From assembly GCA_035565575.1 (NCBI GenBank), contig DATMSE010000130.1:1107-65106 (forward strand): a stretch of DNA of 64,000 nucleotides, read 5' to 3'. The DNA is from Xanthobacteraceae bacterium. GTDB lineage: Bacteria; Pseudomonadota; Alphaproteobacteria; Rhizobiales; Xanthobacteraceae. The position numbers and the translations under genes are program-made. Shown one piece after another: positions 18,469 to 62,640 of the stretch (the first letter of the stretch is position 1; every line of letters begins with the position of its first letter). Under the pieces are notes generated by a model. The model ran no database searches. It was not told the DNA's origin and was given only the letters and a program-made list of their open reading frames with translations.

Positions 18469-18488
18469 TCGCGACCGTCAGTCCATCG

Positions 18489-18627: not shown

Positions 18628-18684
18628 GCGCTTTTAAACCCCGCAGGTTACGTTCCGAAAAGCATGGGGCGGGTGCGTTAGCGT

Positions 18685-23282: not shown

Positions 23283-23609
23283 GAGCGCGGAGCCACCTTG
23301 CACAGGCAGGTTCGGCGCACCGCCAAATTCACCAATCGCCATTAGCTAATCCCCGATCTGCTTTTTATTGCAACGCAGCAGTGTGACGGTTGCGTTGCGG
23401 AGCGTCAATCTATCTCTTTCGCTAATCCTCATCGGCTGAAGGGCTTTATGCTGGCAGGCTTGGGTTAACGGAAAGATCGTTCTTCGCCTTATCCCGGCAC
23501 CAATGGAACCCAAAATCTAGCAGTATGATCAAGGCCGGCATTCTTTTCAGGTCCCGCCGCGACGCAACGCGCATATCCAGCAAGGGACGCGATGCTTTAG
23601 AGTCAACGC

Positions 23610-37711: not shown

Positions 37712-38416
37712 TCACATTGCGAGATGAGCATCGCGAATATCCGGCCGGGCATCAAGATCGGCCATCGTCCCGTTGAAGCAGATGCGGCCGCGCTCGATGA
37801 TGTAGCTGCGGTCCGAAATCAGCCGCGCGAAATGCAGGTTCTGCTCGGACAGAAGGATGCTCAAGCCTTCCTTCTTCATCGTAAGAATGGCATGCGCCAT
37901 CTGCTCGACGATTTTTGGCGACAGGCCCTCCGACGGTTCGTCCAGCAACACGAGTGAGGGATTGCCCATCAAGGTGCGGGCGATGGTCAACATCTGCTGT
38001 TCGCCGCCGCTCATGCGGCCGCCGGCGCGGTTACGCATTTCCGCGAGGTTGGGAAACAGTTCGAACAGCTTGTCCCGGCTCCAATGCGGAGCGCCGGAAC
38101 GCGGCGGCTGCCGGCCCACCTCGAGATTCTCCTCGACCGTCAGATCGGTGAAGATGCGTCGCTCTTCCGGCACATAGCCAAGACCGGCACGGCCGATCGC
38201 ATGCGTGGGCTGCTTCGAGATATCATGCCCCTCGAACATGATGCGGCCGTCACGGCGCGCCACCAACCCGACGATGGAGCGGAAGGTCGTGGATTTTCCG
38301 GCGCCGTTCCGGCCAAGCAAGGCCACCACCTCGCCGGCACCGACCTCAAGATCGACATCGAACAGGATATGCGCCGGCCCGTAATAACTATTCAGCGCGG
38401 ACACCGAGAGCTTCAT
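37712..38416 (-). CDS. HAAT-family ABC transporter ATP-binding protein (LivF-like)
   Basis: Walker A GRNGAGKSTTF, signature MSGGEQQMLTIARTL, Walker B LVLLDEPSEGL. Confidence 0.92.
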   Translation of the reverse strand: MKLSVSALNSYYGPAHILFDVDLEVGAGEVVALLGRNGAGKSTTFRSIVGLVARRDGRIMFEGHDISKQPTHAIGRAGLGYVPEERRIFTDLTVEENLEVGRQPPRSGAPHWSRDKLFELFPNLAEMRNRAGGRMSGGEQQMLTIARTLMGNPSLVLLDEPSEGLSPKIVEQMAHAILTMKKEGLSILLSEQNLHFARLISDRSYIIERGRICFNGTMADLDARPDIRDAHLAM

Positions 38417-46548: not shown

Positions 46549-46581
46549 GGGGTTGTGGGTCCCCGCCTGCGCGGGGACGAC
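46549..46581 (+). repeat. REP-like hairpin repeat, family A (GGGGTTGTGGGTCCCCGCCTGCGCGGGGACGAC)
   Basis: A 33-nt unit identical to the reverse complement of 61683-61715. Core hairpin is GTCCCCGC-CTGC-GCGGGGAC. Ends 10 nt before the nicA ATG. Confidence 0.8.
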
Positions 46582-46590
46582 GCTGAGAGC

Positions 46591-47121
46591 ATGACAAACG
46601 CTGAGCGCATGACTTCAGACCCGATCCGCCTGACCGTCAATGGCACGAGCCACAGCATCGCGGCGGCGGCGGATACGCCGCTGCTCTACATCCTGCGCAA
46701 CGATCTCGAACTCAACGGGCCGAAGTTTGGCTGCGGGCTCGGCGAATGCGGCGCGTGCACGGTGCTCGTCGACGGCATGGCCGCGCGATCCTGCGTGCTG
46801 CCGCTCGCAGCCTGCGCCGGGCGCAGCATCACCACGCTGGAAGGGCTCGGCTCGCGCGAGCGGCCGGACCCGCTGCAGGCGGCATTCGTGACGCATCAGG
46901 CGGCGCAGTGCGGCTATTGCCTCAACGGCATGATCATGACGGCGAAGGCGCTGCTGCTGCGCAATCCCCATCCGTCCGAGCAGGAGATCAAGCAGGCGCT
47001 GCGCTACAACCTGTGCCGCTGCGGCACGCATGTGGAAATTCTCGCCGCGGTGATGACGGCCGCCGGCCATCATGTCGCGCGCGATCACGCGGCGGGAGGC
47101 GCGGCCGATGCGACGCACTGA
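46591..47121 (+). CDS. nicA: (2Fe-2S)-binding small subunit of a Mo-hydroxylase (NicA/IorA-like)
   Basis: Two [2Fe-2S] motifs (CGLGECGACTV and QCGYCLNGMI). Start at ATG 46591 or 46609. Confidence 0.8.
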   Translation: MTNAERMTSDPIRLTVNGTSHSIAAAADTPLLYILRNDLELNGPKFGCGLGECGACTVLVDGMAARSCVLPLAACAGRSITTLEGLGSRERPDPLQAAFVTHQAAQCGYCLNGMIMTAKALLLRNPHPSEQEIKQALRYNLCRCGTHVEILAAVMTAAGHHVARDHAAGGAADATH

Positions 47122-50100
47122 CGGCGCCGATCCCGACATGACGACCACCTCTGGCGCCGAATCGCTGTCGGTCGTGCGCAGCACGCCGGACGATCCCGCC
47201 GGCAGCAGCTTCGAGATTTACATCACCATCGACGCCAGCGGACAGGTGTTCGCCTATAACGGCCATGTCGATCTCGGCACCGGCATCCGCACCGCGCTGA
47301 CGCAGATCGTGGCGGAAGAACTCGACGTGGCGCTGGATCGCGTCACCATGGTGCTGGGCGACACCACGAAGACGCCCAATCAGGGCCCGACCATCGCCAG
47401 CGAAACCATTCAGATCACCGCGGTGCCGTTGCGCAACGCGGCCGCGCAGGCGCGACATTACTTGCTGGCGCGCGCCGCCGAACAGCTCAATCAGCCCATC
47501 GATTCACTCTCGATCGAGGACGGGTTGATCCGCGCGCAGAACAATCACAGCGTCAGCTACGCCGAACTGGTGGCAGGCCACACGGTGCGCCTTGAACTGC
47601 GCGACGATGTGACCTTGAAGGACGTCAACTCCTACAAGCTGGTCGGCCGCGCGGTGCCGCGCCTCGAAATTCCGGCGATGACCACCGGCGAGATGATCTA
47701 TGTGCACGACGTGCGCGTGCCCGGCATGCTGCACGGCCGCGTGGTGCGCCCGCCTTATGCCGGCGTCGATGCCGGCGATTTCGTCGGCACCAGCCTGATC
47801 GCGGTGGACGAAAGCTCGGTCGCGGATATTCCCGGCCTCATCGCCGTGGTGCGGATCGGCGATTTCGTCGGCGTGGTGGCCGATCGCGAGGAAAATGCGA
47901 TCCGCGCCGCCAGTCAGTTGAAACTGACATGGAAGCCGACGCCGACCTTGCCGGACCTCAACGACATCGCCACCGCGCTGCGCGCCAATCCGAGCACGCC
48001 GCGCGTGCTGCGCGACACCGGGGATGTCGACGCAGCATTGGCCAGCGCCGCCACGCCGATGCAACGCACCTATGTGTGGCCGTATCATATTCACGGCTCG
48101 ATCGGGCCGTCGTGTTCGGTCGCGGATTACACCGATAGCGGCTTGCGGGTGTGGACCGGATCGCAGAACCCGCACAACCTGCGCGCCGATCTCGCGAAAC
48201 TGCTGGCGCTGCCGGAAGCCCGCATCGACGTGATCCGGCTGGAGGCCGCCGGCTGCTACGGCCGCAACGGCGCCGACGATGTCAGCGCCGACGCGGCGCT
48301 GCTCTCGCGCGCGGTCGGCCGTCCGGTGCGGGTGCAGCTTACCCGCGAGCAGGAACATGCGTGGGACCCGAAGGGCACCGGGCAGTTGATGGAAATCAAC
48401 GGCGGGCTCGATGCGAACGGCGCGCCGGCCGCTTACGACTTCGCCACGCGCTATCCGTCCAACGCCGCGCCGACACTGGCGCTGCTGCTCACCGGCGCGG
48501 TGCCGCCGGTCGCCGCGACCTTGCAGATGGGCGATCGCACCGCGATCCCGCCCTACGATTATCCTGCGATGCGCGTGATCGCCCACGACATGGCGCCAAT
48601 CGTGCGCGCCTCATGGTTTCGCGGCGTCTCGGCGCTGCCCAACACTTTCGCGCACGAATCCTACATCGACGAACTCGCCACCGAAGCCGGCGTCGATCCG
48701 ATCGAATACCGGCTGCGCTATCTGAAGGACGAGCGCGCGGCCAAACTGGTGCGCGAGGTCGCCGAGCGCGCCAAATGGGAGCCGCGCCCGACATGGACGC
48801 CGAAGGAGGCCGACGGCGACGTGGTGCGCGGCCGCGGCTTCGCTTACGCGGTCTACGTGCACGGCCCGTTTCCCGGCACCGCGGCGGCGTGGTCGGCGTG
48901 GGTCGCCGATGTCGCGGTCAACAAGGCGACCGGCGACGTCGCGGTGACGCATGTGACCGTGGGGCAGGACTCCGGCCTCGTCATCAATCCCGACGGCGTA
49001 CGGCATCAGATCCACGGCAACGTCATCCAGTCCACCAGCCGCGCGCTGATGGAGGAAGTGACGTTCGAGCCTTCCGCCGTCGCGAGCCGCGAATGGGGCG
49101 GTTATCCGATCATCACCTTCCCCGACGTGCCGACAATCGACGTGGTGATCGTCGAGCGGCCGGACCAGCCGCCGCTTGGGGTGGGCGAATCCGCCTCGGT
49201 GCCGAGCGCCGCCGCCATCGCCAACGCCATTTTCGACGCGACCGGCGTGCGTTTTCGCGAGTTGCCGTTCACGCCGGACCGGATTCGCGCGGGACTGCTG
49301 GCGGCCGAAGAAAAGACAAGGCCGCCTTCACCTTTGAAGAAGCGCGGGCTGTGGGCCGGGCTCGCCGCACTGTGTACGGCGGCGGTTGGACTGATCGTTA
49401 CCGCCTCGCCATGGCGGCCGGCGATCGCGCCGATCGCGCCGCCGGATGCCTCCACATACTCGGCCGCGACCATCGCGCGCGGCGCGCAGCTCGCGGCGCT
49501 CGGCGATTGCGCGGTGTGCCACACCCAGGACGGCGGCATCGTCAATGCCGGCGGCCGGCCGCTGGAGACGCCGTTCGGCCTCGTCTATGCCACCAACATC
49601 ACGCCGGATGTCGAGACCGGCATCGGCGCGTGGTCATATCCCGCCTTCGCGCGCGCCATGCGCGAGGGCATCCATCGCGACGGCCGGCATCTCTATCCGG
49701 CGTTTCCCTATAATCACTTCGCGAAAACCAGCGAAGCCGACTTGCAGGCGCTCTACGCCTATCTGATGGCGCAGCCGCCGGTGCGGCAGACCAATCCGGA
49801 AACCAGGCTCGCCTTCCCGCTGAACCTGCGGCCGCTATTGGCGGGATGGAATCTCTTGTTTCATTCGACGGCGGCCTTCGCGGCCGATCCGACCCAATCG
49901 GACGCCTGGAATCGCGGCGCCTATCTGGTGGAAGGGCTCGGCCATTGCGGCGCCTGCCACACGCCGCGCAACGCGCTCGGCGCGGAGAAGGCGTCGCTGA
50001 AACTCGCCGGCGGCGCAGCCGAAGGCTGGACCGCGCCGCCCTTGACGTCGCTGTCGCACGCGCCGATCCCGTGGAGCGAGCAGGAGCTGTTCACGTATCT

Positions 50101-50632
50101 GCGTAGCGGCATCTCGCAGTTTCACGGCGTCGCGGCGGGACCGATGGCGCCGGTGGTGAAGGAACTTAGGCTCCTGCCGGACAGCGACATCCGCGCCATG
50201 GCGACCTATCTCGCCTCGTTCAATCCGAACGCGCCGACGCAGGAGGCGCAGCAGGCGATGGCGGCGCGGCTTGAGGCCGTCACCAGCGCGAAGCCGCTCA
50301 ACGCGTCGCAGCAGGGCGCGCGCATCTATGACGGCGCCTGCGCGGTGTGCCACGAGCCCGGCGGCCCGCAATGGTTCGGCAGCCGGCCCTCGCTGGCGCT
50401 CAACAGCAACCTGCACGGCCCCTCGCCCGACAATCTCGCGCGCGTCATTCTCGAGGGCATCACCCAGCCGGTGAACGGCGAGCTCGGCGCGATGCCGGGC
50501 TTTTCGCACAGCCTCAACGACCAGCAGCTCACCGAACTGATCCGCTACCTGCGCACCCGCTTCGCGCCCGACAAGCCGGCCTGGGACGGCATCGACGCGG
50601 CGCTGAAGGCGGCGCGCGGGACGATCAAATAA
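47108..50632 (+). CDS. nicB: Mo-cofactor large subunit fused to a triheme cytochrome c (NicB-like)
   Basis: About 1174 aa. IorB/aldehyde-oxidase-type Mo-binding region, one TM (LWAGLAALCTAAVGLIVTASPW), then three CxxCH motifs (49508-49522, 49946-49960, 50339-50353). GGGAGG RBS 8 nt before ATG 47108. Overlaps nicA by 14 nt. Confidence 0.8.
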   Translation: MRRTDGADPDMTTTSGAESLSVVRSTPDDPAGSSFEIYITIDASGQVFAYNGHVDLGTGIRTALTQIVAEELDVALDRVTMVLGDTTKTPNQGPTIASETIQITAVPLRNAAAQARHYLLARAAEQLNQPIDSLSIEDGLIRAQNNHSVSYAELVAGHTVRLELRDDVTLKDVNSYKLVGRAVPRLEIPAMTTGEMIYVHDVRVPGMLHGRVVRPPYAGVDAGDFVGTSLIAVDESSVADIPGLIAVVRIGDFVGVVADREENAIRAASQLKLTWKPTPTLPDLNDIATALRANPSTPRVLRDTGDVDAALASAATPMQRTYVWPYHIHGSIGPSCSVADYTDSGLRVWTGSQNPHNLRADLAKLLALPEARIDVIRLEAAGCYGRNGADDVSADAALLSRAVGRPVRVQLTREQEHAWDPKGTGQLMEINGGLDANGAPAAYDFATRYPSNAAPTLALLLTGAVPPVAATLQMGDRTAIPPYDYPAMRVIAHDMAPIVRASWFRGVSALPNTFAHESYIDELATEAGVDPIEYRLRYLKDERAAKLVREVAERAKWEPRPTWTPKEADGDVVRGRGFAYAVYVHGPFPGTAAAWSAWVADVAVNKATGDVAVTHVTVGQDSGLVINPDGVRHQIHGNVIQSTSRALMEEVTFEPSAVASREWGGYPIITFPDVPTIDVVIVERPDQPPLGVGESASVPSAAAIANAIFDATGVRFRELPFTPDRIRAGLLAAEEKTRPPSPLKKRGLWAGLAALCTAAVGLIVTASPWRPAIAPIAPPDASTYSAATIARGAQLAALGDCAVCHTQDGGIVNAGGRPLETPFGLVYATNITPDVETGIGAWSYPAFARAMREGIHRDGRHLYPAFPYNHFAKTSEADLQALYAYLMAQPPVRQTNPETRLAFPLNLRPLLAGWNLLFHSTAAFAADPTQSDAWNRGAYLVEGLGHCGACHTPRNALGAEKASLKLAGGAAEGWTAPPLTSLSHAPIPWSEQELFTYLRSGISQFHGVAAGPMAPVVKELRLLPDSDIRAMATYLASFNPNAPTQEAQQAMAARLEAVTSAKPLNASQQGARIYDGACAVCHEPGGPQWFGSRPSLALNSNLHGPSPDNLARVILEGITQPVNGELGAMPGFSHSLNDQQLTELIRYLRTRFAPDKPAWDGIDAALKAARGTIK

Positions 50633-50650
50633 GACAAGATCACTTGGACT

Positions 50651-50664
50651 TTGCGCTCGCGCAA
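50651..50664. promoter_or_regulatory. NnrR/Dnr-type box TTGCG-CTCG-CGCAA upstream of nnrS
   Basis: Perfect dyad TTGCGCTCGCGCAA. Its centre is 68 nt before the nnrS ATG, which fits a -41.5 class II activator site. Confidence 0.6.
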
Positions 50665-50725
50665 AGGGGACGCGGCAGCGCGCGCTATGGTGGCGGCATT
50701 CCAAGCTGTTTGAAGCACAAGTTCG

Positions 50726-51898
50726 ATGTCCACGCCGCCTGTCCTCAGCCATGCCTTTCGCATCTGTTTTCTGCTCGCCGCAATCTGGGCGGCGCTGGCG
50801 GTGCCGCTGTGGCTGATGACCTATGCCGGCATGCTGACCATCGCCGAGGTTTACGGCGGCGTCGCCTGGCATGCGCATGAGCTGATCTTCGGCTATGCCG
50901 CGCTGGTGATCTGCGGCTTCCTGTTCACCGCGATCCCGAACTGGACCGGACGGCTGCCGGTGGCGGGATTTCCGCTGCTGTCGCTGGTCCTGATCTGGGT
51001 GCTGGGACGCATCGCGATGCTGTGCGCGGCCGGAATCGGTCCCGCCGTCGCCGCGCTGGTCGACCTGACGTTTCTCGGCGCGGTGCTGGCGGTGGCCGGG
51101 CGCGAGATCGTCGCCGGCAAGAACTGGCGCAATCTGCGGGTGCTGGTGATGGTGGCCTGGCTGTTCGCCGCCAACGCCGCATTCCATGCCGCCGTGCTCG
51201 GCGGCGCGATGCTCGACGTCAGCCTGCGCGGCGCGGTCGGCGCGCTGGTGGCGCTGATCACCTTGATCGGCGGGCGGCTGACGCCGAGTTTCACCCGCAA
51301 TTGGCTGGTGAAACGCGATCCCGCGCGCCTGCCCGCGCCGTTCGACGCGCTCGACGCCGTCGCCATCGGCACCGGCGTGGTCGCGCTGCTGGCGTGGGTG
51401 ATTGCACCGGATGGGCAGACCACCGCCGCGCTGGCGGCGCTTGCGGCATTGCTTCTGATCGCGCGGCTGGCGCGCTGGCGCGGCACCCTCACATTTGCCG
51501 AACCGCTGCTGGCGATCCTGCATCTCGGCTATGCCTTTGTCCCGCTCGGCTTCGCGCTCGCCGCCGGCCATGCGCTGTGGCCGGACGCGATTCCCGCCGC
51601 CGCCGTGATTCACGCCTGGACCGCCGGCGCGGTCGGGGTGATGACGCTGGCGGTGATGACGCGCGCGAGCCTCGGCCATACCGGCCACGCGCTCACCGCG
51701 GGCCCGGCGACGACGTCGATCTATCTCGCGATCCTCACCGCCGCGCTGCTGCGCGTCGTCGCGCCATTCGCCGTCGACTGGCAGCATGCGGCGCTCAACC
51801 TGTCCGGCGCGGCCTGGACGCTGGCATTCCTGCTGTTCGTCGCAAGCTACGGCCCGATCCTGTGCACGGCGCGCCGGACAAAACGCGCGGAAGCCTAG
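50726..51898 (+). CDS. nnrS: NnrS family heme/copper membrane protein
   Basis: 390-aa polytopic protein. The opening (FRICFLLAAIWAALAVPLWL ... WHAHELIFGY) is typical of NnrS. Confidence 0.88.
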   Translation: MSTPPVLSHAFRICFLLAAIWAALAVPLWLMTYAGMLTIAEVYGGVAWHAHELIFGYAALVICGFLFTAIPNWTGRLPVAGFPLLSLVLIWVLGRIAMLCAAGIGPAVAALVDLTFLGAVLAVAGREIVAGKNWRNLRVLVMVAWLFAANAAFHAAVLGGAMLDVSLRGAVGALVALITLIGGRLTPSFTRNWLVKRDPARLPAPFDALDAVAIGTGVVALLAWVIAPDGQTTAALAALAALLLIARLARWRGTLTFAEPLLAILHLGYAFVPLGFALAAGHALWPDAIPAAAVIHAWTAGAVGVMTLAVMTRASLGHTGHALTAGPATTSIYLAILTAALLRVVAPFAVDWQHAALNLSGAAWTLAFLLFVASYGPILCTARRTKRAEA

Positions 51899-52590
51899 CC
51901 CTCCTCCGCCACCTCGGTCAGCGCGCCGGGCTTGGCGATCACCACGCGGCGGCGGCCGCTGTCGATGATGCCGCGCCCCTCCCATCCGCTCAAGGTGCGG
52001 CTGACGGTGTGCAGCGTGGTGCCGGTCATCTCCGCCAGATCCTGCCGCGACAGCGGAAACGCGATCTCGACGCCGCGCGCGGTGCGCCGTCCCGCCTGCT
52101 GCGCCAGCCGCAGCAAGGTGTGGGCGATGCGCCGCTCGACCTTCTCGGTCGCGAGTTCGCGCAGCCGCAATTGCAGGTCGCGATAGCGCTGGCCCAGCAG
52201 CGCCGCGGCATTGATCGCGATCGCCGCATGCCGCGTCATGGCCTCGCGCAGCACCGCGGCCGGCATCCCGATGAGATGGCTGTCGTCCACCGCCGTCACC
52301 GCGCCGGGATGCACCTCGCCGCCGGTCAGCGCCGCATAGCCGACCACGTCGCCGGGCCCGAGATAGCGAATGATGATCTGCTGGCCGTCCAACGTGGACT
52401 GGGTGACGCGCAGCCGCCCGACGGCGACGACATAGCAGGTCGTGACGGTGTCTTCCTGCTGGAATACGGTCTCGCCCGCCGCAAATTTGCGGCGGAATGA
52501 CGTCGCCTGCAGTTGGCGCAGCACGTCGGCCGGCACGCCACGAAACAGTTCACTGCGGGCCAGGATGTCGATATCGGGAGATTCGACCAT
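51895..52590 (-). CDS. nnrR: Crp/Fnr family transcriptional regulator, NnrR/Dnr-like (no Fe-S Cys cluster)
   Basis: Trimmed to MVESPDIDILARSELFRGV (ATG 52590). cNMP-type beta-barrel plus HTH (RQDLAEMTGTTLHTVSRTL). No N-terminal Cys motif. Adjacent to nnrS, with TTGCG-N4-CGCAA boxes nearby. Confidence 0.7.
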   Translation of the reverse strand: MVESPDIDILARSELFRGVPADVLRQLQATSFRRKFAAGETVFQQEDTVTTCYVVAVGRLRVTQSTLDGQQIIIRYLGPGDVVGYAALTGGEVHPGAVTAVDDSHLIGMPAAVLREAMTRHAAIAINAAALLGQRYRDLQLRLRELATEKVERRIAHTLLRLAQQAGRRTARGVEIAFPLSRQDLAEMTGTTLHTVSRTLSGWEGRGIIDSGRRRVVIAKPGALTEVAEEG

Positions 52591-52808
52591 ACCGCTGCTT
52601 TCGCGCCATCCCCTGCTATCGCCGGCCAAACCGCGAATCTGCCGCCACCCTCGCGAATCCGGCCATATTCCGGGCCCGACCTCCGCAGCCTGTCGCGGCA
52701 CGCCGGTGACGAATGTCAGAACCAACACCACACTAGCCGCGCCCGCAACTTCGCCGCATAGTGCGGGCATCGAATCGCGGGCCTGCCGGGCGGCATATTG
52801 CTGGTTAT

Positions 52809-52822
52809 TTGCGTTGGCGCAA
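52809..52822. promoter_or_regulatory. NnrR/Dnr-type box TTGCG-TTGG-CGCAA in the nnrR/aox divergent region
   Basis: Perfect dyad TTGCGTTGGCGCAA. Its centre is 66 nt before the aox ATG. Confidence 0.6.
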
Positions 52823-52881
52823 AGACCGTGACGCCGGCCTGCGCCACTGCCAGACTGGCGCCGCGTTTTCAGGGAGCTGCG

Positions 52882-53538
52882 ATGCTGAACGTCAACAAGA
52901 CCGATCTTCTGCGCCATCACGTTCCGGAAACATTGTCGGATCGTTTTGCCGCGTGGGCGGAACGGCTGTTGACGGCGATGGCCGGCGGCTTCAGCCGCCG
53001 TTACGGCGGGCGCGTCGTGGTGCTGGAGACCATCGCGGCGGTGCCGGCGATGGTGGCGGCGAGCCTGCTCCATTTACAATGCCTGCGGCAGTTGATCGAC
53101 GATCGCGGCTGGGTCCGCGCCTTCATGGACGAGGCGGAAAACCAGCGCGCGCACCTGATGGCCTTCGTCGCCATCAGGCGGCCGAGCTGGGGCGAGCGCT
53201 GGCTGATCGCGATCGGTCAGGGCACCTTCTATAATGCCTATTTCCTGCTCTCGCTGATTTCGGGCCGCTGCGCCCATCGCCTCGCCGGCTATCTCGCCGA
53301 GCGTTCGGTGAAGGGCTATTCGGATTATCTCGCATCGCTGGAATCCGGCGCGATCCCCAACGGCCCGGCGCCGGACACCGCAGTGGCCTACTGGAATCTC
53401 GCGCCCGGCGCGCTGCTCAGCGACATGATCATCGCCATGCGCGAGGACGAGGCGATCCATCGCGACATCCATCACGCCTTCGCTGATGCCCTGGCGCAAG
53501 GTCAGGTGCTGCCGGAACGACCGAGTCCGCTGCTGTAG
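52882..53538 (+). CDS. aox: alternative (cyanide-insensitive, diiron) ubiquinol oxidase family protein
   Basis: AOX motifs VVLETIAAVPAMV, EAENQRAHL and REDEAIHRDIHH. Trimmed to MLNVNKTDLLRHHVPE (ATG 52882, GGGAG RBS). Confidence 0.85.
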   Translation: MLNVNKTDLLRHHVPETLSDRFAAWAERLLTAMAGGFSRRYGGRVVVLETIAAVPAMVAASLLHLQCLRQLIDDRGWVRAFMDEAENQRAHLMAFVAIRRPSWGERWLIAIGQGTFYNAYFLLSLISGRCAHRLAGYLAERSVKGYSDYLASLESGAIPNGPAPDTAVAYWNLAPGALLSDMIIAMREDEAIHRDIHHAFADALAQGQVLPERPSPLL

Positions 53539-53567
53539 GTTTTCGTTTCACGAACATCCTATCCATC

Positions 53568-53657
53568 GTCATGCCCGGCCTTGTGCCGGGCATCCACGTC
53601 CTTACGAAGAGTCAGAAAGCAAGACGTGGATGGCCGGGACAAGCCCGGCCATGACAC
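53568..53657. repeat. REP-like composite, family B: two ATG(C/G)CCGG hairpins in inverted orientation
   Basis: ATGCCCGGC-CTTGT-GCCGGGCAT (53572-53594) and ATGGCCGGG-ACAAG-CCCGGCCAT (53631-53653). The flanking CCACGTC/GACGTGG arms can pair as well. Confidence 0.75.
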
Positions 53658-53694
53658 CTGAGAAATACGTGCCAGGAAAACTCTTTGCTTCAAC

Positions 53695-53708
53695 TTGCGC
53701 CAGCGCAA
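53695..53708. promoter_or_regulatory. NnrR/Dnr-type box TTGCG-CCAG-CGCAA upstream of pseudoazurin
   Basis: Perfect dyad TTGCGCCAGCGCAA. Its centre is 91 nt before the paz ATG. Confidence 0.6.
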
Positions 53709-53792
53709 CGAGCGTGTTGCGGACGTGCATAGGGTGCGCCTGCAAGATGAAGGGACTGCCCTTTGACGGCAGTCGCGAGACGGAGTTGCCCC

Positions 53793-54275
53793 ATGCCACG
53801 CTTGACCACGCTGATGCTTTGCGCCGGTGCGCTGCTGCTGACCGTTCCTGCCCATGCGGCAGAGTACGAAGTCAAGATGCTGAACAAGGGGCCTGACAAT
53901 CAGGCGATGGTCTTCGATCCGCCGTTCCTGAAAGTGCAGCCGGGCGACACCGTCAAATTCGTCCCGACCGACAAGGGCCACGACGCCGAAACCATTCCGG
54001 GCCTGCTGCCGGAGGGTGCAACGCCGTTCAAAGGCAAGCTGTCGCAGGAGATCAGCGTCACCTTCGAGAAGCCGGGCCTCTACGGCTACCGCTGCGTGCC
54101 GCACTTCGGCATGGGCATGGTGGGGCTGATCGAAGTCGGCGGCGACACCGCCAATCTCGAGGCGGTCAAACAGGCCAAGCTGCCGCCGCTCGCCACCAAA
54201 CGCATGACCGCGCTGCTGGATCAGGCGACGACGAAGAACACCGCGGATGCGGGAAGCGGGCCTGCTTCGCGCTAG
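53793..54275 (+). CDS. paz: pseudoazurin (type 1 blue copper protein)
   Basis: Signal peptide MPRLTTLMLCAGALLLTVPAHA. Cupredoxin ligand pattern (...GH..E ... YRCVPHFGMGMVG). ACGGAG RBS. Confidence 0.88.
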   Translation: MPRLTTLMLCAGALLLTVPAHAAEYEVKMLNKGPDNQAMVFDPPFLKVQPGDTVKFVPTDKGHDAETIPGLLPEGATPFKGKLSQEISVTFEKPGLYGYRCVPHFGMGMVGLIEVGGDTANLEAVKQAKLPPLATKRMTALLDQATTKNTADAGSGPASR

Positions 54276-54472
54276 CCCTGCGCCGCGCGTCCCGGACGCC
54301 ATCGGCATCAGCATCAAGCGGGCGCCTCGCGCGGCCGCGGCATTCGCTCGAGCAGCAGTGGATGGACCAACCGGCACGACTGCAACGACCACGGCCGGCA
54401 TCTTCAACTGACATCGGCGGCCCTTGAATCGCATTGACGGCATCGCGGCCGCCGCCGCGCTGCAGCGTCAAT

Positions 54473-54486
54473 TTGCGTTTGCACAA
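54473..54486. promoter_or_regulatory. Crp/Fnr-type box TTGCG-TTTG-CACAA upstream of fixN (9/10 match)
   Basis: TTGCGTTTGCACAA with the same TTT...AAAG flanks as the other boxes. About 160 nt before the fixN ATG. Confidence 0.4.
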
Positions 54487-54641
54487 AGATGCAATCCCCG
54501 GACACGATATAGCTGGAAATCTATCCGGCTGCTGAGCCTCGGGGCTTCCCCCGGGCTCATGCCACTGGGGCATTGCCAAGGCAGATCGCCGCGGCGGCTG
54601 CGTCAAGCATTCCGCGCGATGAAACAAGGGGTGTGTTTTCG

Positions 54642-56303
54642 ATGATCGCCGAACTCACAAAAAACGAGCGCCAGAGCGCACTGGTCATTCTGCTGGTGCT
54701 GGCCATCGTCGGCCTCGCCATGGCCGCCGCCGGCCGCAGCGACCCGTTCGGGATTCACGGCGCGATGGTGATGATCGCGGCGATTGCCGGCATCTTCGCG
54801 GTGATCTCCGGCTACTACGCGCCGGAGCCACCGGAAGAACGGCTCAACAGCTATTACGACACGCCGACCAAGTTCGGCATCATCGCCGCGATGGTCTGGG
54901 CCGTGATCGGCATGGGAGTCGGCGACTGGGTCGCCTGGCTGCTCGCTTTTCCGGACCTGACCTTCGATGCGGCCTGGGCCAGCTTCGGCCGGCTGCGCCC
55001 GGTGCACACCTCCGGCGTGATCTTCGGCTTCGGCGGCAACGCGCTGATCGCCACCTCCTTCTACGTGATGCAGCGGACCACGCGGGCACGGCTGCCGGAT
55101 CAGCTCAGCCCGTGGTTCGTGCTGCTCGGCTACAACCTGTTCTGCATCATCGCCGCCACCGGCTACCTGATGGGCGTGACGCAGTCGCGCGAATATGCCG
55201 AGCCGGAATGGTATGCCGACATCTGGCTGGTGATCGTGTGGGTGGCCTATTTCGTGCTCTACATGCGTACGCTGGCGCGGCGCAAGGAACCGCACATCTA
55301 CGTCGCCAACTGGTACTATCTCGCGTTCATCCTGGTGGTGGCGATGCTGCACATCGTCAACAACCTCGCGGTACCGATCTCGTTCGGCAGCGCCAAGAGC
55401 TATTCGCTGTTCTCCGGCGTGCAGGACGCGATGACCCAGTGGTGGTACGGCCACAACGCGGTGGCGTTCTTCCTCACCTCCGGCTTTCTCGGCATGCTGT
55501 ATTACTACATGCCCAAGCGCGCCGGCCGCCCGATCTACTCCTACCGGATGTCGATCATCAGCTTCTGGGGCATCACCTTCTTCTACATGTGGGCCGGTTC
55601 GCATCACCTGCACTACACCGCGCTGCCGCAGTGGGTGCAGTCGCTCGGCATGACCTTCTCGGTGATGCTGCTGGTGCCGTCCTGGGTCTCCGCCGGCAAC
55701 GCGCTGATGACGCTGAACGGCGCCTGGCACAAGGTGCGCGACGACGCGGTGCTGCGCTTCATGATGGTGGCGGCGGTGTTCTACGGCCTCACCACCTTCG
55801 AAGGCTCGTTCATGGCGATCCGTCCGGTGAACTCGCTGTCGCACTACACCGACTGGACCGTGGGCCACGTTCATGCCGGCGCACTGGGCTGGGTGGCGAT
55901 GATCACCTTCGGCGCGATCTACGCCTCGGTGCCGTGGCTGTGGAAGCGCGAGGGCATGTATTCGGCGAGGCTGGTCGAGGCCCACTTCTGGCTCGCCCTT
56001 GCCGGCACCGTCGTCTACGTCTTCGCGATGTGGAATTCAGGCATCATTCAGGGCCTGATGTGGCGGACCTATAACGAGAGCGGCACGCTGACCTACTCGT
56101 TCCTCGATTCGCTGGTGGCGATGCATCCTTACTACATCGCCCGCGCCATCGGCGGCCTGTTCTTCCTGCTCGGCGCGATCATCGGCTTCTACAACATCTG
56201 GATGACGATCCGCACCGCGTCGCAGGAGCAGGCGGCGCACAATCCCGCCGACTATCCCGAGATCGGCGCCGCCGGCGCCCCCGCATTGCAGCCCGGAGAG
56301 TAA
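54642..56303 (+). CDS. fixN: cbb3-type cytochrome c oxidase subunit I
   Basis: CcoN/FixN pattern (WWYGHNAVAFFLT, GAHHLHYT-like SHHLHYTALP, HYTDWTVGHVHAGALGW). Trimmed to MIAELTKNERQ. Confidence 0.95.
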   Translation: MIAELTKNERQSALVILLVLAIVGLAMAAAGRSDPFGIHGAMVMIAAIAGIFAVISGYYAPEPPEERLNSYYDTPTKFGIIAAMVWAVIGMGVGDWVAWLLAFPDLTFDAAWASFGRLRPVHTSGVIFGFGGNALIATSFYVMQRTTRARLPDQLSPWFVLLGYNLFCIIAATGYLMGVTQSREYAEPEWYADIWLVIVWVAYFVLYMRTLARRKEPHIYVANWYYLAFILVVAMLHIVNNLAVPISFGSAKSYSLFSGVQDAMTQWWYGHNAVAFFLTSGFLGMLYYYMPKRAGRPIYSYRMSIISFWGITFFYMWAGSHHLHYTALPQWVQSLGMTFSVMLLVPSWVSAGNALMTLNGAWHKVRDDAVLRFMMVAAVFYGLTTFEGSFMAIRPVNSLSHYTDWTVGHVHAGALGWVAMITFGAIYASVPWLWKREGMYSARLVEAHFWLALAGTVVYVFAMWNSGIIQGLMWRTYNESGTLTYSFLDSLVAMHPYYIARAIGGLFFLLGAIIGFYNIWMTIRTASQEQAAHNPADYPEIGAAGAPALQPGE

Positions 56304-56308
56304 CGACG

Positions 56309-57040
56309 ATGTTTGGATTTCATTACCGGCTGGAACGCAAATCCATCGGCCTGGTGCTCGCCATCGTCGGCGTCGCCTCGATCGGCGGCATCGTCGAGAT
56401 CGCGCCGCTGTTCACCATCCACCAGACGGTGGAAGCGGCGCCGAACATGCGGGTCTACACTCCGCTCGAACTGGCGGGCCGCAACATCTATGTCCGCGAA
56501 GGCTGCTACGCCTGCCATTCGCAGATGGTTCGCACGCTGCGCGACGAGGTGGAGCGCTACGGGCCCTATTCGCTGGCGGTCGAATCCAAATACGACCACC
56601 CGCATCTGTGGGGCTCGAAGCGCACCGGCCCCGATCTCGCCCGCCTCGGCGAGAAGTATTCCGACGACTGGCACGTCGCCCATCTCAACAATCCGCGCGA
56701 CGTGGTGCCGGAATCGGTGATGCCGGCCTATCGCTGGCTGCTGCGCACGCCGCTGCAGACCGAGACGCTGGGCAAGGACCTCAAGGCGATGCGCGCCGTC
56801 GGCGTGCCCTATACCGACGACATGATCGCCAATGCCTCGGCGGACGCTTACGGCCAGGCCGCGCCCGACTCGCCCGCCGCCGAAGGCGTCACCAAGCGCT
56901 ACGGCGAGAAGACCACCGTGCGCGCCTTCGACGGCAAGCCCGCCGAGCTGACCGAAATGGATGCGCTGGTGGCCTATCTGCAAATCCTCGGGCGGCTGAC
57001 CGATGTCGCGCACAAGCCCGTCGCTTCCGCGGAGAAATGA
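56309..57040 (+). CDS. fixO: cbb3-type cytochrome c oxidase subunit II (monoheme)
   Basis: GRNIYVREGCYACHSQMVR heme motif. GGAGAG RBS. Confidence 0.95.
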   Translation: MFGFHYRLERKSIGLVLAIVGVASIGGIVEIAPLFTIHQTVEAAPNMRVYTPLELAGRNIYVREGCYACHSQMVRTLRDEVERYGPYSLAVESKYDHPHLWGSKRTGPDLARLGEKYSDDWHVAHLNNPRDVVPESVMPAYRWLLRTPLQTETLGKDLKAMRAVGVPYTDDMIANASADAYGQAAPDSPAAEGVTKRYGEKTTVRAFDGKPAELTEMDALVAYLQILGRLTDVAHKPVASAEK

Positions 57041-57210
57041 CCATGACCCACGACCTGCTCGTCTGGTTCTCCAAATCCTTCGGCCTGTTCTACCTGATTG
57101 GTCTGTCGCTGATCGTGCTCGCCTACACCTACTGGCCCTCGAACAAGAAGCCGTTCGAGCAGGCCGCGCAGGCGATCATCACCGACGACGACAAGCCATA
57201 TCGTGGATGA
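57037..57210 (+). CDS. fixQ: cbb3-type oxidase small subunit FixQ/CcoQ (57 aa; absent from the ORF track as a separate gene)
   Basis: ATG 57037 overlaps the fixO stop (ATGA). MTMTHDLLVWFSKSFGLFYLIGLSLIVLAYTYWPSNKKPFEQAA... contains a single TM. Position between fixO and fixP. Confidence 0.8.
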   Translation: MTMTHDLLVWFSKSFGLFYLIGLSLIVLAYTYWPSNKKPFEQAAQAIITDDDKPYRG

Positions 57211-57219
57211 GATCACATC

Positions 57220-58095
57220 ATGGGGCACTTTGAACGCGACCCGCATACCGGGTACCTGACCACCGGTCACGAATGGAACGGCATCACCGAGCTCAACACG
57301 CCGGTGCCGAAAGTGATCTGGCTGTTCCTGATATCGACGGTGATCTTCGCCGTCGGCTACTGGATCCTGATGCCGACCTGGCCCCTGGGGCGCACCTATA
57401 CCAAGGGCCTGCTCGGTGACGATCAGCACCAGATCGTGGCGCAGTCGGTGAAGCAGGCGGCGCTCGCGCGCACCGTCTGGACCGACCGCATCGAGAAGGA
57501 AAGCTTCGCCGATATTCAGAAGGACGCGGCGCTGATGGACGTCGTGCGCAAGACCGGCCACACGCTGTTCGGCGACAACTGCGCCGTCTGCCACGGCCGC
57601 ACCGCGCAGGGCGGCAAGGGCTATCCGAATCTCACCACCTCGTCGTGGCTGTGGGGCGGCACGCCGGAGGCGATCTTCGAGACGATCCGCGTCGGCATCA
57701 ACTCGGCGCATCCGGAAACCCGCACCTCGCAGATGCCGGCCTTCGGCAAGGACGGCATGCTGCCGCGCGCCGACATCGAGAAGGTGATCGCCTTCGTGCG
57801 CAGCCTGTCGCCCGAGACCAAGGGCCTCGATGCCGCCACCGTTGCCGCCGGCAAGGAGCTGTTCGCGGCGAACTGCGCCTCCTGTCACGGCGAGGACGCC
57901 AAGGGCAACACCGAGATGGGGGCGCCGGATCTGACCGATGCCTACTGGATCTACGGCGGCGATCAGGCGTCGCTCGCGGCGACGCTGTGGGGCGGCCGGC
58001 AGGGCCATATGCCGACCTGGGAGAGCCGGCTGTCGGCGATCGATCGCAAAATCCTCGCGCTCTATCTGGTCGACCTGCGGAGCGGCAAGAAATGA
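57220..58095 (+). CDS. fixP: cbb3-type cytochrome c oxidase subunit III (diheme)
   Basis: Two heme motifs (CAVCHG and CASCHG) and an N-terminal TM. Confidence 0.95.
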   Translation: MGHFERDPHTGYLTTGHEWNGITELNTPVPKVIWLFLISTVIFAVGYWILMPTWPLGRTYTKGLLGDDQHQIVAQSVKQAALARTVWTDRIEKESFADIQKDAALMDVVRKTGHTLFGDNCAVCHGRTAQGGKGYPNLTTSSWLWGGTPEAIFETIRVGINSAHPETRTSQMPAFGKDGMLPRADIEKVIAFVRSLSPETKGLDAATVAAGKELFAANCASCHGEDAKGNTEMGAPDLTDAYWIYGGDQASLAATLWGGRQGHMPTWESRLSAIDRKILALYLVDLRSGKK

Positions 58096-58330: not shown

Positions 58331-59140
58331 GTGACCGACACCGAACCCTCACCGATCATCATTCCGCCCGTTCTCGCGCCGCTGCCGGTGAATCACCGCT
58401 GGAAGCGCGGACTGACATCGGCCGATGCCTTTAGATGGCTGGCGCTGGGCTGGCGCGACTTCTGCACCCGGCCGGGACCCAGCATCGTCTACGGGCTGTT
58501 CGTATTCCTGCTGTCGGCGGCGATCGTCTACGGCCTGTTCAAGTTCGAACTGGATTACATCCTGTTTCCGGCGCTGGCCGGCTTCATGGTGGTGGGCCCG
58601 ATCCTCGCGGTCGGCCCCTATGCCAAGAGCCGGCAAATCGCCGAGGGCAAACCCGTCAGCCTGTTCAACATGATCTTCGTGCGGCCGGCGGCGGGCGCGC
58701 AGATCATGTTCACCGGCGTGCTGCTGTGCCTGCTGATGCTGGTGTGGATGCGCGCCGCGGTGATCGTCTATGCGTTGTTCTTCGGCCTGGTGCCGTTCCC
58801 CGGCCTCGATCACATCGCGCAGATGCTGTTCGGCACCCCGACCGGCTGGGCGATGCTGTTCGTCGGCAGCGTGGTGGGCGCGCTGTTCGCCGCGTTCTCG
58901 TTCGGCATCAGCGCCTTCTCGATCCCGATGCAGCTCGATCAGCGCGTCGATGCGCTGACCGCGATGGGCTCCAGCATGGCGCTGGTCTGGCACAACCTCG
59001 CCGCAATGCTGACCTGGGCCGCGATCATGCTGGCGCTGATTCTGTTCAGCATCGCCACCGGCCTGCTCGGATTGATCGTGGTGTTTCCGGTTCTCGGCCA
59101 TGGCACCTGGCATGCCTATCGGGCCGTGAAGCCGTCATGA
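58331..59140 (+). CDS. DUF2189 domain integral membrane protein
   Basis: GTG start after GAGG. The pattern FRWLALGWRDF...GPSIVYGL..F ... FPALAGFMVVGPILAVGPY recalls DUF2189/COG5473. Confidence 0.7.
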   Translation: MTDTEPSPIIIPPVLAPLPVNHRWKRGLTSADAFRWLALGWRDFCTRPGPSIVYGLFVFLLSAAIVYGLFKFELDYILFPALAGFMVVGPILAVGPYAKSRQIAEGKPVSLFNMIFVRPAAGAQIMFTGVLLCLLMLVWMRAAVIVYALFFGLVPFPGLDHIAQMLFGTPTGWAMLFVGSVVGALFAAFSFGISAFSIPMQLDQRVDALTAMGSSMALVWHNLAAMLTWAAIMLALILFSIATGLLGLIVVFPVLGHGTWHAYRAVKPS

Positions 59141-59195
59141 GCCGGCGGTCTCCGGCGAGGGCCGGAGGCGTTCGCCGGCAGAAGTGGAGCGTGCG

Positions 59196-61463
59196 ATGAG
59201 TTGTTGCGCCCCTGGCAGCGAGGTCGCATTCGGCGGCGATGCCGCGAGCCGCGCCGAGGAAGTGCGGCTGGCGAGCCGTCCGGTCGGCGACGGCATCCGC
59301 CAGACCGACCTGTCGGTGCCCGGCATGCATTGCGGCGGCTGCATTCAGGCGGTCGAGCGCGCGCTGAATGCCCTTCCGGGGGTCGAAGCCGCCCGCGTGA
59401 ATCTGTCCAGCAGGCGCGCCACCATCCGCTGGCATGAGGACGCCGCGCCGCCGCCGTTCATCGCGGCGCTGCGCGATATCGGCTATGACGCGCATCTGTT
59501 CGATCCCGGCGCCGAGCGCAAGGACAATACGCTCAGCGAATTGTTGCGCGCGCTGGCGGTGGCCGGCTTCGCCGCCAGCAACATCATGCTGCTGTCGGTC
59601 TCGGTATGGGCCGGCGCCGACCCGACCACGCGCGACCTGTTTCACGGCATCTCGGCGCTGATCGCGCTGCCGGCGCTGGCCTATTCCGGACGCGTGTTCT
59701 TCCGCTCGGCGTGGAGCGCGCTCAAGCACGGCCGCACCAACATGGACGTGCCGATCTCGATCGGCGTCATCATGGCCTTCGGCCTCAGCCTTTATGAGAC
59801 GCTGCATCACGGCGCACATGCCTACTTCGATGCGTCCGTCACGCTGCTGTTCTTCCTGCTGATCGGCCGCACGCTCGATCACCTGATGCGCGAACGCGCG
59901 CGCACCGCCGTGAAGGGCCTCGCGCAACTGGCGGCCCGCGGCGCGCTGGTGGCGCAGCCGGACGGCAGCAACGTCTATCTGCCGGTGAACGACATTCAGA
60001 TCGGCATGACGGTGCTGCTGGCGGCGGGCGAGCGCGTGCCGGTGGACGGACGCGTCACCAGCGGCCAGTCCGATATCGACCGCTCGCTGCTCACCGGCGA
60101 AAGCGCGCCGGTGCAGGTCGCGCCGGGCGCGCTGCTGCAGGCCGGCACGCTGAACCTCACAGGCCCGCTGACGCTGATCGCCACCGCCGTCGCGCGCGAT
60201 TCGTTCCTTGCGGAAATGATGCGGCTGATGGAGACGGCGGAAGCCGGCCGCTCCGCCTATCGCCGCATCGCCGACCGCGCCTCGCGGCTTTATGCGCCGG
60301 TGGTGCATGCCGCCGCGTTGCTGACCATGATCGGCTGGCTGATCGCCACCGGCGATCTGCATCGCGCGGTGACGATCGCGATTGCCGTGCTCATCATCAC
60401 CTGCCCCTGCGCGCTCGGCCTCGCAGTGCCGATGGTGCAGGTGATGGCGGCGCGGCGGCTGTTCGAACGCGGCATGCTGCTGAAGGACGGCGGCGCGCTG
60501 GAGCGGCTCGCCGAGATCGACACCGTGGTGTTCGACAAGACCGGCACGCTCACGCTCGGCCAGCCGCGCCTGCTGCATCCGGAATCGATCGACGCCGATG
60601 CGCTCGGCATCGCGGCGGCGATGGCGACGCATTCGCGCCATCCGTATTCCCGCGCGCTGGCCGCGGCGGGCGCGGTGATTGCATCGCCGCTCGACGCGGG
60701 CGCGGTCGCGGAAATTCCGGGCGCGGGGCTGGAAGCGCGCATCGGCGCGCATGTCTATCGCCTCGGCCGCGCAAGCTGGGCGCTGTCGCAACCCGACGGC
60801 GACGCGGTTGACCACGCCAATGTCGTGCTGTCGCGCGACGGACAACCTGTGGCGCGCTTCGCATTCGAAGACCGGCTGCGCGACGGTGCGCGGACCGCGA
60901 TCGCCGACCTCGCCGCGCGCGGCTTCGTCATCGAGGTGCTGTCCGGCGACCGCGACGACGCGGTGCGCCGCATCGCCGATGATCTCGGCGCGCGGCATCT
61001 GTCCGAAGTCTCGCCGGCCGGCAAGGTCACGCGTATCAGCGATATCGAAGCGAGCGGCCATCGCGTGCTGATGGTCGGCGACGGCCTCAACGACGCGCCG
61101 GCGCTCGCCGCCGCGCATGCGTCGATGGCGCCGGCCTCGGCCGCCGACGTCGGCCGCAACGCCGCCGATCTGGTGTTTCTGCACCAAAGCCTGCGCGCGG
61201 TTCCCGAAGCGATCGGTCTCGCCCGAAATGCCGCGCGGCTGGTGCAACAAAACCTCGCGCTGGCGATTGGATATAATGTGATCGCGGTGCCGATCGCAGT
61301 GTCGGGCTATGTGACGCCGCTGATCGCCGCGGTGGCGATGTCGTCGTCGTCGCTCATCGTGATCGCCAATGCGTTGCGGCTGCGCGGCACCACGCGCACC
61401 AAGGGCGCGGACTCGGCCGCCGCAGCCATCGTCGCGCAACCAGTGATGGGAAAAAGCGCATGA
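59196..61463 (+). CDS. fixI: copper-translocating P1B-type ATPase FixI/CcoI
   Basis: HMA domain (GMHCGGC), CPC (ITCPCALG), DKTGTLT and GDGLNDAP. GTGGAG RBS before ATG 59196. Confidence 0.93.
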   Translation: MSCCAPGSEVAFGGDAASRAEEVRLASRPVGDGIRQTDLSVPGMHCGGCIQAVERALNALPGVEAARVNLSSRRATIRWHEDAAPPPFIAALRDIGYDAHLFDPGAERKDNTLSELLRALAVAGFAASNIMLLSVSVWAGADPTTRDLFHGISALIALPALAYSGRVFFRSAWSALKHGRTNMDVPISIGVIMAFGLSLYETLHHGAHAYFDASVTLLFFLLIGRTLDHLMRERARTAVKGLAQLAARGALVAQPDGSNVYLPVNDIQIGMTVLLAAGERVPVDGRVTSGQSDIDRSLLTGESAPVQVAPGALLQAGTLNLTGPLTLIATAVARDSFLAEMMRLMETAEAGRSAYRRIADRASRLYAPVVHAAALLTMIGWLIATGDLHRAVTIAIAVLIITCPCALGLAVPMVQVMAARRLFERGMLLKDGGALERLAEIDTVVFDKTGTLTLGQPRLLHPESIDADALGIAAAMATHSRHPYSRALAAAGAVIASPLDAGAVAEIPGAGLEARIGAHVYRLGRASWALSQPDGDAVDHANVVLSRDGQPVARFAFEDRLRDGARTAIADLAARGFVIEVLSGDRDDAVRRIADDLGARHLSEVSPAGKVTRISDIEASGHRVLMVGDGLNDAPALAAAHASMAPASAADVGRNAADLVFLHQSLRAVPEAIGLARNAARLVQQNLALAIGYNVIAVPIAVSGYVTPLIAAVAMSSSSLIVIANALRLRGTTRTKGADSAAAAIVAQPVMGKSA

Positions 61464-61944: not shown

Positions 61945-62640
61945 TTACGCCGCCATCGCCTGCGGCGGGGCGAGCGTCTGCCAGCTCTCCGCGAGGTGCA
62001 GCTTCGGCTCGGTCATCGTCTGCAAAAGCTCCAGCGTCATGCCGGGGATCATTTCCAGCACCATGAGGCCCTTCGCCGTCACGTCGATTACCGCGAGGTC
62101 GGTGTAGATGCGCTTGACCACACCGGGCGCGGTGAGCGGCAGCGAGCAGCGCTTGAGGATGCGCGGCGATCCGCTCTTGTGGGTGTGCGCCATCAGCACG
62201 CGGATTTCGCGCGCGCCGACCGCGAGATCCATGGCGCCGCCGACGCCGGGCGGGAACGCCGGGTCCTCGGTGGTCCAGTTGGCGAGATCGCCGGTCTCCG
62301 ACACCTCGAACGCGCCCAGCAGGCTGACATCGAGATGGCCGCCGCGGATCATCAGGAAGGCGTCGGCGTGATGCACATAGCAGCCGCCGGTGACCAGTGT
62401 GGAGAGATTCTTGCCCGCGTCAGTGATGTTGGGATCTTCCTCACCCGGCTTCGGCTTCGGCCCGAGGCCGATCACGCCATTCTCGCTGTGGAAGATCACC
62501 TCGCGGCCCGCCGGCACATAGCTCGCCGCCAGCGTCGGAATGCCGATGCCGAGATTGACGAAACACCCCTCCGGCAGATCCTGCGCGGCGCGCCATGCCA
62601 TCTGGTCGCGGGTGAGCCGGGTGTAAGCTGGCGATGTCAT
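61945..62640 (-). CDS. pcaJ: 3-oxoacid/3-oxoadipate CoA-transferase subunit B
   Basis: 231 aa with the SENG active-site region (VIFHSENGVIGLGP). ATGA overlap with the subunit A stop. Confidence 0.88.
   Translation of the reverse strand: MTSPAYTRLTRDQMAWRAAQDLPEGCFVNLGIGIPTLAASYVPAGREVIFHSENGVIGLGPKPKPGEEDPNITDAGKNLSTLVTGGCYVHHADAFLMIRGGHLDVSLLGAFEVSETGDLANWTTEDPAFPPGVGGAMDLAVGAREIRVLMAHTHKSGSPRILKRCSLPLTAPGVVKRIYTDLAVIDVTAKGLMVLEMIPGMTLELLQTMTEPKLHLAESWQTLAPPQAMAA

Follow-up and report, generated by a model that had tools for sequence, protein, structure and literature searches.

How does a bacterium come to place a gene of the nitric oxide (NO) response, two terminal oxidases and an electron carrier around one Crp/Fnr-type regulator, and what would that regulator respond to? 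The question is raised by a stretch of 64,000 nucleotides from a Xanthobacteraceae bacterium (assembly GCA_035565575.1, contig DATMSE010000130.1; the whole 64-kb stretch is called the window below), in which nnrS, a regulator gene, aox (alternative quinol oxidase), a pseudoazurin gene (paz) and ccoNOQP (cbb3-type cytochrome oxidase) follow one another, and in which short dyads of the form TTGCG-N4-CGCAA, here termed boxes, stand before the respiratory genes. As we argue, four such boxes are probably the sites at which an activator serves class II promoters of the Crp/Fnr-dependent kind, the activator being the NnrR-family protein whose gene lies among them.

The initial annotation had reported three perfect dyads at 50651, 52809 and 53695 and a 9/10 copy at 54473, and both the pattern scan and the shuffles bear this out. 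Exactly three perfect matches to TTGCGNNNNCGCAA occur in the window, at these positions, against 0.24 expected; all are intergenic and lie within a span of at most 3.1 kb, and none of 100 dinucleotide shuffles gave three. A scan allowing one mismatch adds the 9/10 copy TTGCGTTTGCACAA at 54473, together with further matches at 4144, 29088, 35539 and 52157; the class with at most one mismatch, taken as a whole, is at chance level in the window (8 seen versus 6.9 expected). All four boxes are intergenic, and each stands 5′ of a separate gene or operon (nnrS, aox, pseudoazurin or ccoNOQP), as had been proposed; box 1 lies 19 nt past the stop codon of the preceding molybdenum cofactor (Moco)/cytochrome c gene. 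Reading of the sequence also confirms that the flanks tTTGCG...C(G/A)CAAAg are common to boxes 1, 2 and 4, with the pseudoazurin box (box 3, cTTGCG...CGCAAc) as the stated exception. The boxes agree with the published NnrR consensus, ctTTGcgnnnncgCAAag, for which nnrS is a core target (PMC1274295), and the published site tables contain GCaCAA half-sites such as that of box 4, for example in the R. sphaeroides nnrS site. FNR-type TTGAT-N4-ATCAA sites with at most one mismatch number three in the window, versus 1.06 expected, and none of them is found at the four promoters.

The boxes are kept at the matching promoters of relatives. A search with the regulator as query, limited to one genome per species, returned 80 loci; among these, uncultured Xanthobacteraceae and Hyphomicrobiales whose regulators are 77-86% identical repeat the arrangement ccoPON-paz-aox / regulator / nnrS-Moco dehydrogenase. 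A box with at most one mismatch is present at the matching promoter in 7/8 loci for nnrS, about 14/22 for aox, 12/16 for pseudoazurin and 7/10 for ccoN, where the chance of such a box, derived from the window expectation, is approximately 0.03 per 300-bp upstream region. The nnrS box is perfect and at the same distance of 68.5 nt in L001, L002, L004 and L005, and is perfect also in L010 and L013. The aox box is identical to that of the window, at 66.5 nt, in L001, L002, L004, L005, L008 and L011, and perfect aox boxes are carried by Bradyrhizobium cenepequi, L016, L089 and L090; across the loci of the regulator's clade the box between regulator and aox is perfect or near-perfect in most, while in Chelatococcus and Afipia it is a TTGAT/CGCAA hybrid. 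The pseudoazurin box TTGCGCCAGCGCAA is the same in L001, L002, L005, L006, L009 and L021, with variants in others, and the ccoN box TTGCGTTTGCACAA is the same in L001, L002, L005, L008 and L010 and becomes a perfect TTGCGTTTGCGCAA in L011. Judged by this conservation, the predicted regulon at nnrS, aox, pseudoazurin and ccoNOQP is real.

The promoters share a geometry as well. At three of the four (nnrS, pseudoazurin and ccoN), a -10-like hexamer of the form TAnnnT follows exactly 21 nt 3′ of the box (Table 1); for boxes 1, 3 and 4, it predicts transcription starts at approximately 50698, 53742 and 54520, respectively, with box 1 at about -41. The 21-nt spacing would thus put the dyad centre around 41 nt 5′ of the predicted start, which is class II (-41.5) geometry. 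In orthologous loci, the hexamer reads TATGGT, TTAATT or CTAATT after box 1, TAGGGT, TAAGGT, TACGGT, TAGATT or TAGAAT after box 3, and TATAGG, TACGGT, TAAGGT or TATAGA after box 4. Across related genomes the boxes and hexamers are fixed, whereas the 21-nt spacers and the flanks vary, in a profile that is biased because the best-matching site per region was chosen. A scan for consensus sigma-70 promoters over 50550-54700 found no match, as is expected if the activator site replaces the -35 element.

Two further features of these promoter regions may be added. The regulator-aox intergenic region (52591-52881) measures 291 bp in the window versus 167-172 bp in the closest relatives; the extra ~120 bp lie on the regulator side, so that the box-to-regulator distance (225 versus ~105 nt) is not conserved, and this speaks against autoregulation from a fixed promoter of the class II type. 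In the predicted 5′ untranslated region of pseudoazurin, between the -10 hexamer and the ATG, a perfect 7-bp stem (GACTGCC...GGCAGTC, 53754-53774), flagged on the minus strand by a terminator scan, may be a leader structure.

The regulator itself has a cyclic nucleotide monophosphate-binding-like sensor domain (PF00027, E=1e-19) and a C-terminal Crp-type helix-turn-helix (PF13545, E=8e-19). Its only Cys is C52, and it is therefore devoid of an FNR-type [4Fe-4S] cluster, in line with the earlier description of a Crp/Fnr protein lacking the FNR Cys motif amid the boxes. Its recognition helix, TGTTLHTVSR, is that of Sinorhizobium meliloti NnrR, while that of FixK reads LTIETVSR; overall identity is 43% to S. 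meliloti NnrR and 28% to FixK. The S. meliloti NnrR used for comparison is encoded 3′ of nirK-nirV and 5′ of azu1 on pSymA-type plasmids, and the FixK sequence comes from the same locus. Among the 120 closest homologues listed, the TGTTLHTVSR helix is invariant in most, and the His-for-Glu position (E181 in CRP numbering) has been correlated with an altered half-site (Rodionov et al.). A neighbour-joining tree of 77 sequences, which is distance-based only and holds no DNR or FNR reference sequences, separates the NnrR family from FixK and other Crp proteins with a bootstrap of 83%, and the regulator clusters within the former. Two of the outcomes named in the initial annotation as refuting it, a regulator that clusters with FixK and boxes missing from orthologous promoters, are thus not what is observed. 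A sequence search of the PDB returned only generic Crp-family structures (E of about 1e-21), with FixK2 (4i2o) at E=6e-11 and no NnrR structure. No fixK or other Crp/Fnr gene besides the local regulator was found in the window; two open reading frames (ORFs) considered as a second Crp/Fnr gene, 61945-62640 (231 aa) and 37712-38416, proved to encode a CoA-transferase and an ABC ATPase, respectively.

Table 1. Positions of boxes, -10-like hexamers, genes and the inverted repeat in the window
Feature	Position	Strand	Details
Box 1, TTGCGCTCGCGCAA	50651..50664	+	nnrS promoter; centre 68.5 nt 5′ of nnrS ATG
-10-like hexamer TATGGT	50686..50691	+	21 nt after box 1
nnrS	50726..51898	+	390 aa; haem-copper membrane protein of NO-responsive regulons; PF05940, E=3e-104
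Regulator gene	51895..52590	-	231 aa; NnrR-family Crp/Fnr regulator; convergent with nnrS
Box 2, TTGCGTTGGCGCAA	52809..52822	+	regulator-aox divergent intergenic region; centre 66.5 nt from aox ATG, 225.5 nt from regulator ATG
aox	52882..53538	+	218 aa; alternative (cyanide/NO-insensitive) quinol oxidase; PF01786, E=4e-60
Inverted repeat	53568-53600 / 53623-53655		33 nt; 88% complementary; 22-nt loop; aox-pseudoazurin spacer
Box 3, TTGCGCCAGCGCAA	53695..53708	+	pseudoazurin promoter; centre 91.5 nt 5′ of ATG
-10-like hexamer TAGGGT	53730..53735	+	21 nt after box 3
Pseudoazurin gene	53793..54275	+	160 aa; TIGR02375, 151 bits vs cutoff 110
Box 4, TTGCGTTTGCACAA (9/10)	54473..54486	+	ccoNOQP promoter; centre 162.5 nt 5′ of ccoN ATG
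-10-like hexamer TATAGC	54508..54513	+	21 nt after box 4
ccoN	54642-56303	+	TIGR00780, above cutoff
ccoO	56309-57040	+	TIGR00781, above cutoff
ccoP	57220-58095	+	TIGR00782, above cutoff

With these elements, the class II promoters proposed here would function as follows. The regulator would be activated, most likely by NO as for characterised NnrR; the activated dimer would bind each TTGCG-N4-CGCAA dyad near -41.5 and recruit RNA polymerase to promoters without a -35 element, so that NnrS, the NO-insensitive alternative quinol oxidase, pseudoazurin and the cbb3 oxidase are switched on. Together, these products would sustain aerobic or microaerobic respiration while NO poisons haem-copper oxidases. 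NO is put forward as the signal on the grounds of the family to which the regulator belongs, the inclusion of nnrS among the predicted targets, the adjacency of nirK-nirV or norEF in distant members of the regulator's clade, and the NO induction of bacterial aox elsewhere: aox of Vibrio fischeri is NO-induced via NsrR (Dunn 2010, as related in papers citing it), and NO strongly induces aox in Sphingopyxis granuli, an alphaproteobacterium (PMC6472365). NO control of aox and cbb3 in this locus is plausible, and we infer that the local regulator, rather than a paralogue or FixK, occupies the sites.

Several observations weigh against this account. The aox promoter has a poor -10 hexamer (CCACTG or GCAATG) in the window and in the closest relatives, although more distant aox promoters carry TATGAT, TAGGAT, TATCCT or TAGGTT at the 21-nt spacing. 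A sigma-54 reading of this weak promoter, suggested by TGGCAC-like strings in relatives, was rejected, as the distance between GG and GC differs by one from that required and the window itself does not have the motif. Within the window, tblastn gave no match to nirK, nirV, norCBQD or napA, which confirms the earlier remark that nirK and nor are missing and would leave the source of NO unaccounted for. Canonical NnrR has the same helix; if it is also encoded in the genome, sequence cannot separate the two. Finally, purified FixK2 of Bradyrhizobium diazoefficiens activates in vitro the shared promoter of nnrS and nnrR, which carries the box TTGCGCTATCGCAA (PMC6710368). NnrR is therefore not alone in using TTGCG-N4-CGCAA boxes, and if a FixK gene lies beyond the window, its product could share in the control of these genes or even dominate it. 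Hence, the attribution of this pattern to NnrR in the initial annotation agrees with the published consensus, but the clean distinction from FixK boxes drawn there does not hold.

Taken to its full extent, this last point would make the boxes FixK2-type sites (TTG[A/C]-N6-[T/G]CAA) that carry a low-O2 response through FixLJ-FixK outside the window, with the local regulator as a target or minor co-activator. The relaxed FixK2 pattern accommodates three of the four boxes, fixNOQP is a classic FixK2 target in B. diazoefficiens, and the aox and paz boxes of Chelatococcus and Afipia are TTGAT/CGCAA hybrids. However, box 4, with its ACAA half, falls outside that pattern, and every half-site here is of the TTGCG/TTGTG type, none being TTGAT. 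Moreover, the NnrR motif and the FNR/FixK/DNR motif have only 6/10 positions in common (Dufour et al., PMC2908626), and the gene that lies amid the boxes, and that varies together with them from genome to genome, is for a regulator with the matching His-containing helix, in a window where no other Crp/Fnr gene was found. We thus regard control by FixK2 as unlikely. In B. diazoefficiens, fixN is approximately 2-fold down in an nnrR mutant (PMC6710368).

If the local regulator belongs to the NnrR family, is it simply the NnrR of this genome? The sequence comparisons suggest otherwise. Identity of the window regulator is only 42-43%, both with S. meliloti NnrR and with the type linked to nnrS and DUF1858. 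The 120 closest database proteins listed match it at 58-100% identity, but S. meliloti NnrR or the second Chelatococcus regulator at only ~40-49%. The group of regulators linked to aox is monophyletic in 200/200 bootstrap replicates. It has a divergent aox partner in every sampled member with context (L001-L012, L014-L022, L081, L083 from B. cenepequi, L088 from Afipia, L089 and L090), with the single exception of L084, where the helix reads LYTVSR and the gene lies beside an insertion sequence (IS) fragment; L013 is cut at a contig end. On this evidence, the window regulator belongs to a sister clade of NnrR and is not an orthologue of the S. meliloti SMa1245 or B. diazoefficiens blr7084 type. 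The designation of the local regulator as NnrR therefore stands as to family and helix, and falls as to orthology with a characterised NnrR.

Both types may be found side by side. Plasmid pTAD1 of Chelatococcus daeguensis carries them within 10 kb: regulator 1 (62% to the window regulator) in the arrangement paz<-aox<- / ->regulator 1, followed by nirV<-nirK, and regulator 2 (43%) in the arrangement nnrS<- / ->regulator 2, with DUF1858 and norEF next in line and norCBQD at a greater distance. The latter and its Bradyrhizobium relatives share the order nnrS / nnrR / DUF1858 described for B. diazoefficiens blr7084 (PMC6710368). L090 likewise has, 4 kb away, a canonical-type Crp with hemN and norEF. 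In distant members of the clade (Chelatococcus, Afipia, Brucella endophytica and Undibacter), nirK-nirV lie directly beside the regulator. A perfect box is found at nirK-nirV in such distant members, TTGCGTATTCGCAA of Chelatococcus being one example. An ordinary NnrR orthologue, with a standard denitrification regulon only partly in view, would share both recognition helix and box with what is seen here, and nnrS and pseudoazurin are among the classical NnrR targets. In contrast, the separate clade (100% bootstrap), the low identity to both characterised types, the co-occurrence of the two types on pTAD1 and in L090, and 64 kb without nirK or nor make such an orthologue, in our estimate, rather improbable.

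The composition of the clade's neighbourhoods bears on the signal. In L081 (Chelatococcus, 14914-19635) and L083 (B. cenepequi, 11126-15320), the aox-linked regulator is adjoined by O2-independent ubiquinone-type genes, namely UbiX, UbiD, an SCP2/UbiT-like protein and two U32 peptidases (UbiU/V-like); a homologous pair, bll7628-7627, is NnrR-dependent in B. diazoefficiens (PMC6710368). These neighbours, a sensor domain only ~40% identical to characterised NnrR, and a regulon in which terminal oxidases and an electron carrier predominate would suit a dedicated regulator of alternative respiration that senses something other than NO, be it inhibition of the respiratory chain, redox state, CO, cyanide or, through haem, O2. 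Yet the regulon includes nnrS, nirK-nirV or norEF flank the regulator in distant members, and wherever tested in bacteria the inducer of aox is NO. We give a different signal little credence, and NO, sensed by the NnrR-family regulator of the locus, is retained as the preferred candidate.

Gene identities throughout rest on Pfam and NCBIfam profile matches; for the regulator, NnrS and AOX, NCBIfam gave no equivalog above cutoff. The genes ccoN, ccoO and ccoP (54642..58095) encode the cbb3-type cytochrome oxidase. Downstream of them, the region 58331-61463 encodes a membrane protein of the DUF2189 family and a ccoI-like P-type ATPase for heavy metals (59184-61463). Homologues of ccoG and ccoH were not found; tblastn with S. 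meliloti CcoG gave no match in the window. The hairpin at 53568..53655 (repetitive extragenic palindrome-like or terminator-like), which ends shortly 5′ of box 3, probably separates the aox and pseudoazurin transcription units; the window holds no second copy of its 33-nt inverted repeat. On the other side, nnrS is preceded by a 1186-aa fusion (47072-50632) that joins two or three cytochrome c domains to a dehydrogenase of the molybdopterin-binding type, itself preceded by a [2Fe-2S] subunit (46555-47121), and this fusion is syntenic with nnrS in L001, L002, L004, L010, L011 and L015. Inside its ORF lies a perfect FNR/FixK consensus, TTGATGGAAATCAA (48386-48399), which could be an internal promoter or a chance match. 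A hybrid box, TTGCGGAGCGTCAA (23395-23408), located between the divergent genes for a polyhydroxybutyrate depolymerase (22011-23342, minus strand) and a histidine kinase (23610-24932, plus strand), may mark an additional Crp/Fnr-type target.

The pairing of box and regulator is in itself textbook NnrR. In the literature searched, we found nothing that links the alternative oxidase to NnrR or to Crp/Fnr regulators; relative to that literature, what is new is that aox and a cbb3 operon stand, in a conserved manner, behind NnrR-type boxes, that NnrR has a distinct sister clade, and that this clade is tightly linked to aox. NO control of bacterial aox has so far been established only through the NsrR repressor in Vibrio, and a conserved paralogue of the NnrR family, bound to aox both physically and in evolution, gives Hyphomicrobiales a concrete candidate for the regulator as well as for the operator. 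It would widen the NnrR regulon, beyond the enzymes of denitrification, to terminal oxidases and would imply that 'NnrR' annotations conceal at least two functionally separable lineages. More tentatively, the aox-linked clade might be a dedicated second NnrR ('NnrR2'), detached from denitrification in some Xanthobacteraceae and driving a module of NO-tolerant aerobic respiration; we offer this as a possibility worth stating and favour it less than the promoter assignment itself. Such a module would comprise the NO-insensitive AOX, an alternative electron path through pseudoazurin and cbb3 that is perhaps NO-consuming, and NnrS, and would allow bacteria of soil and wastewater that denitrify only in part or not at all to go on respiring in NO released by neighbours. 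It could then be of practical use in predicting NO tolerance among nitrifier- and denitrifier-associated bacteria. Cultured carriers of the clade are Chelatococcus daeguensis TAD1, B. cenepequi and Afipia.

Among known systems, the NnrR regulons of Rhodobacter sphaeroides, Ensifer meliloti and B. diazoefficiens are alike in having a Crp/Fnr activator without the Cys cluster and with the helix TLHTVSR, the dyad (c)tTTGCG-N4-CGCAAAg, nnrS and pseudoazurin as targets, and activator-dependent promoters. They differ in that the window regulator belongs to a sister clade at ~43% identity and is divergent with aox instead of nnrS or nirK, and in that its predicted targets are terminal oxidases (aox, cbb3), not nirK and nor; aox and ccoN are not listed in the NnrR site tables of 2005. 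The DNR/NNR proteins of Pseudomonas and Paracoccus are likewise NO-responsive Crp/Fnr activators of respiratory genes, but they have a Glu-containing helix and recognize FNR-like TTGAT-N4-ATCAA sites (PMC1274295), and they form a separate phylogenetic group. The FixLJ-FixK2/fixNOQP system of B. diazoefficiens also places a single Crp/Fnr-type dyad before the cbb3 operon, and FixK2 can use TTGCG-type boxes; however, its fixN box is TTGATTTCAATCAA (PMC6710368), while the conserved box here is TTGCGTTTGCACAA, with no FixK nearby. The NsrR-aox system of V. fischeri, to the extent that papers citing Dunn 2010 describe it, similarly ties an NO-responsive factor to an NO-insensitive aox, with nnrS in the stimulon. 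NsrR, however, is a repressor of the Rrf2 family and its operator is unrelated, whereas here a Crp/Fnr-type activator would act at class II promoters; the two ways of connecting aox to NO would be a case of convergent wiring.

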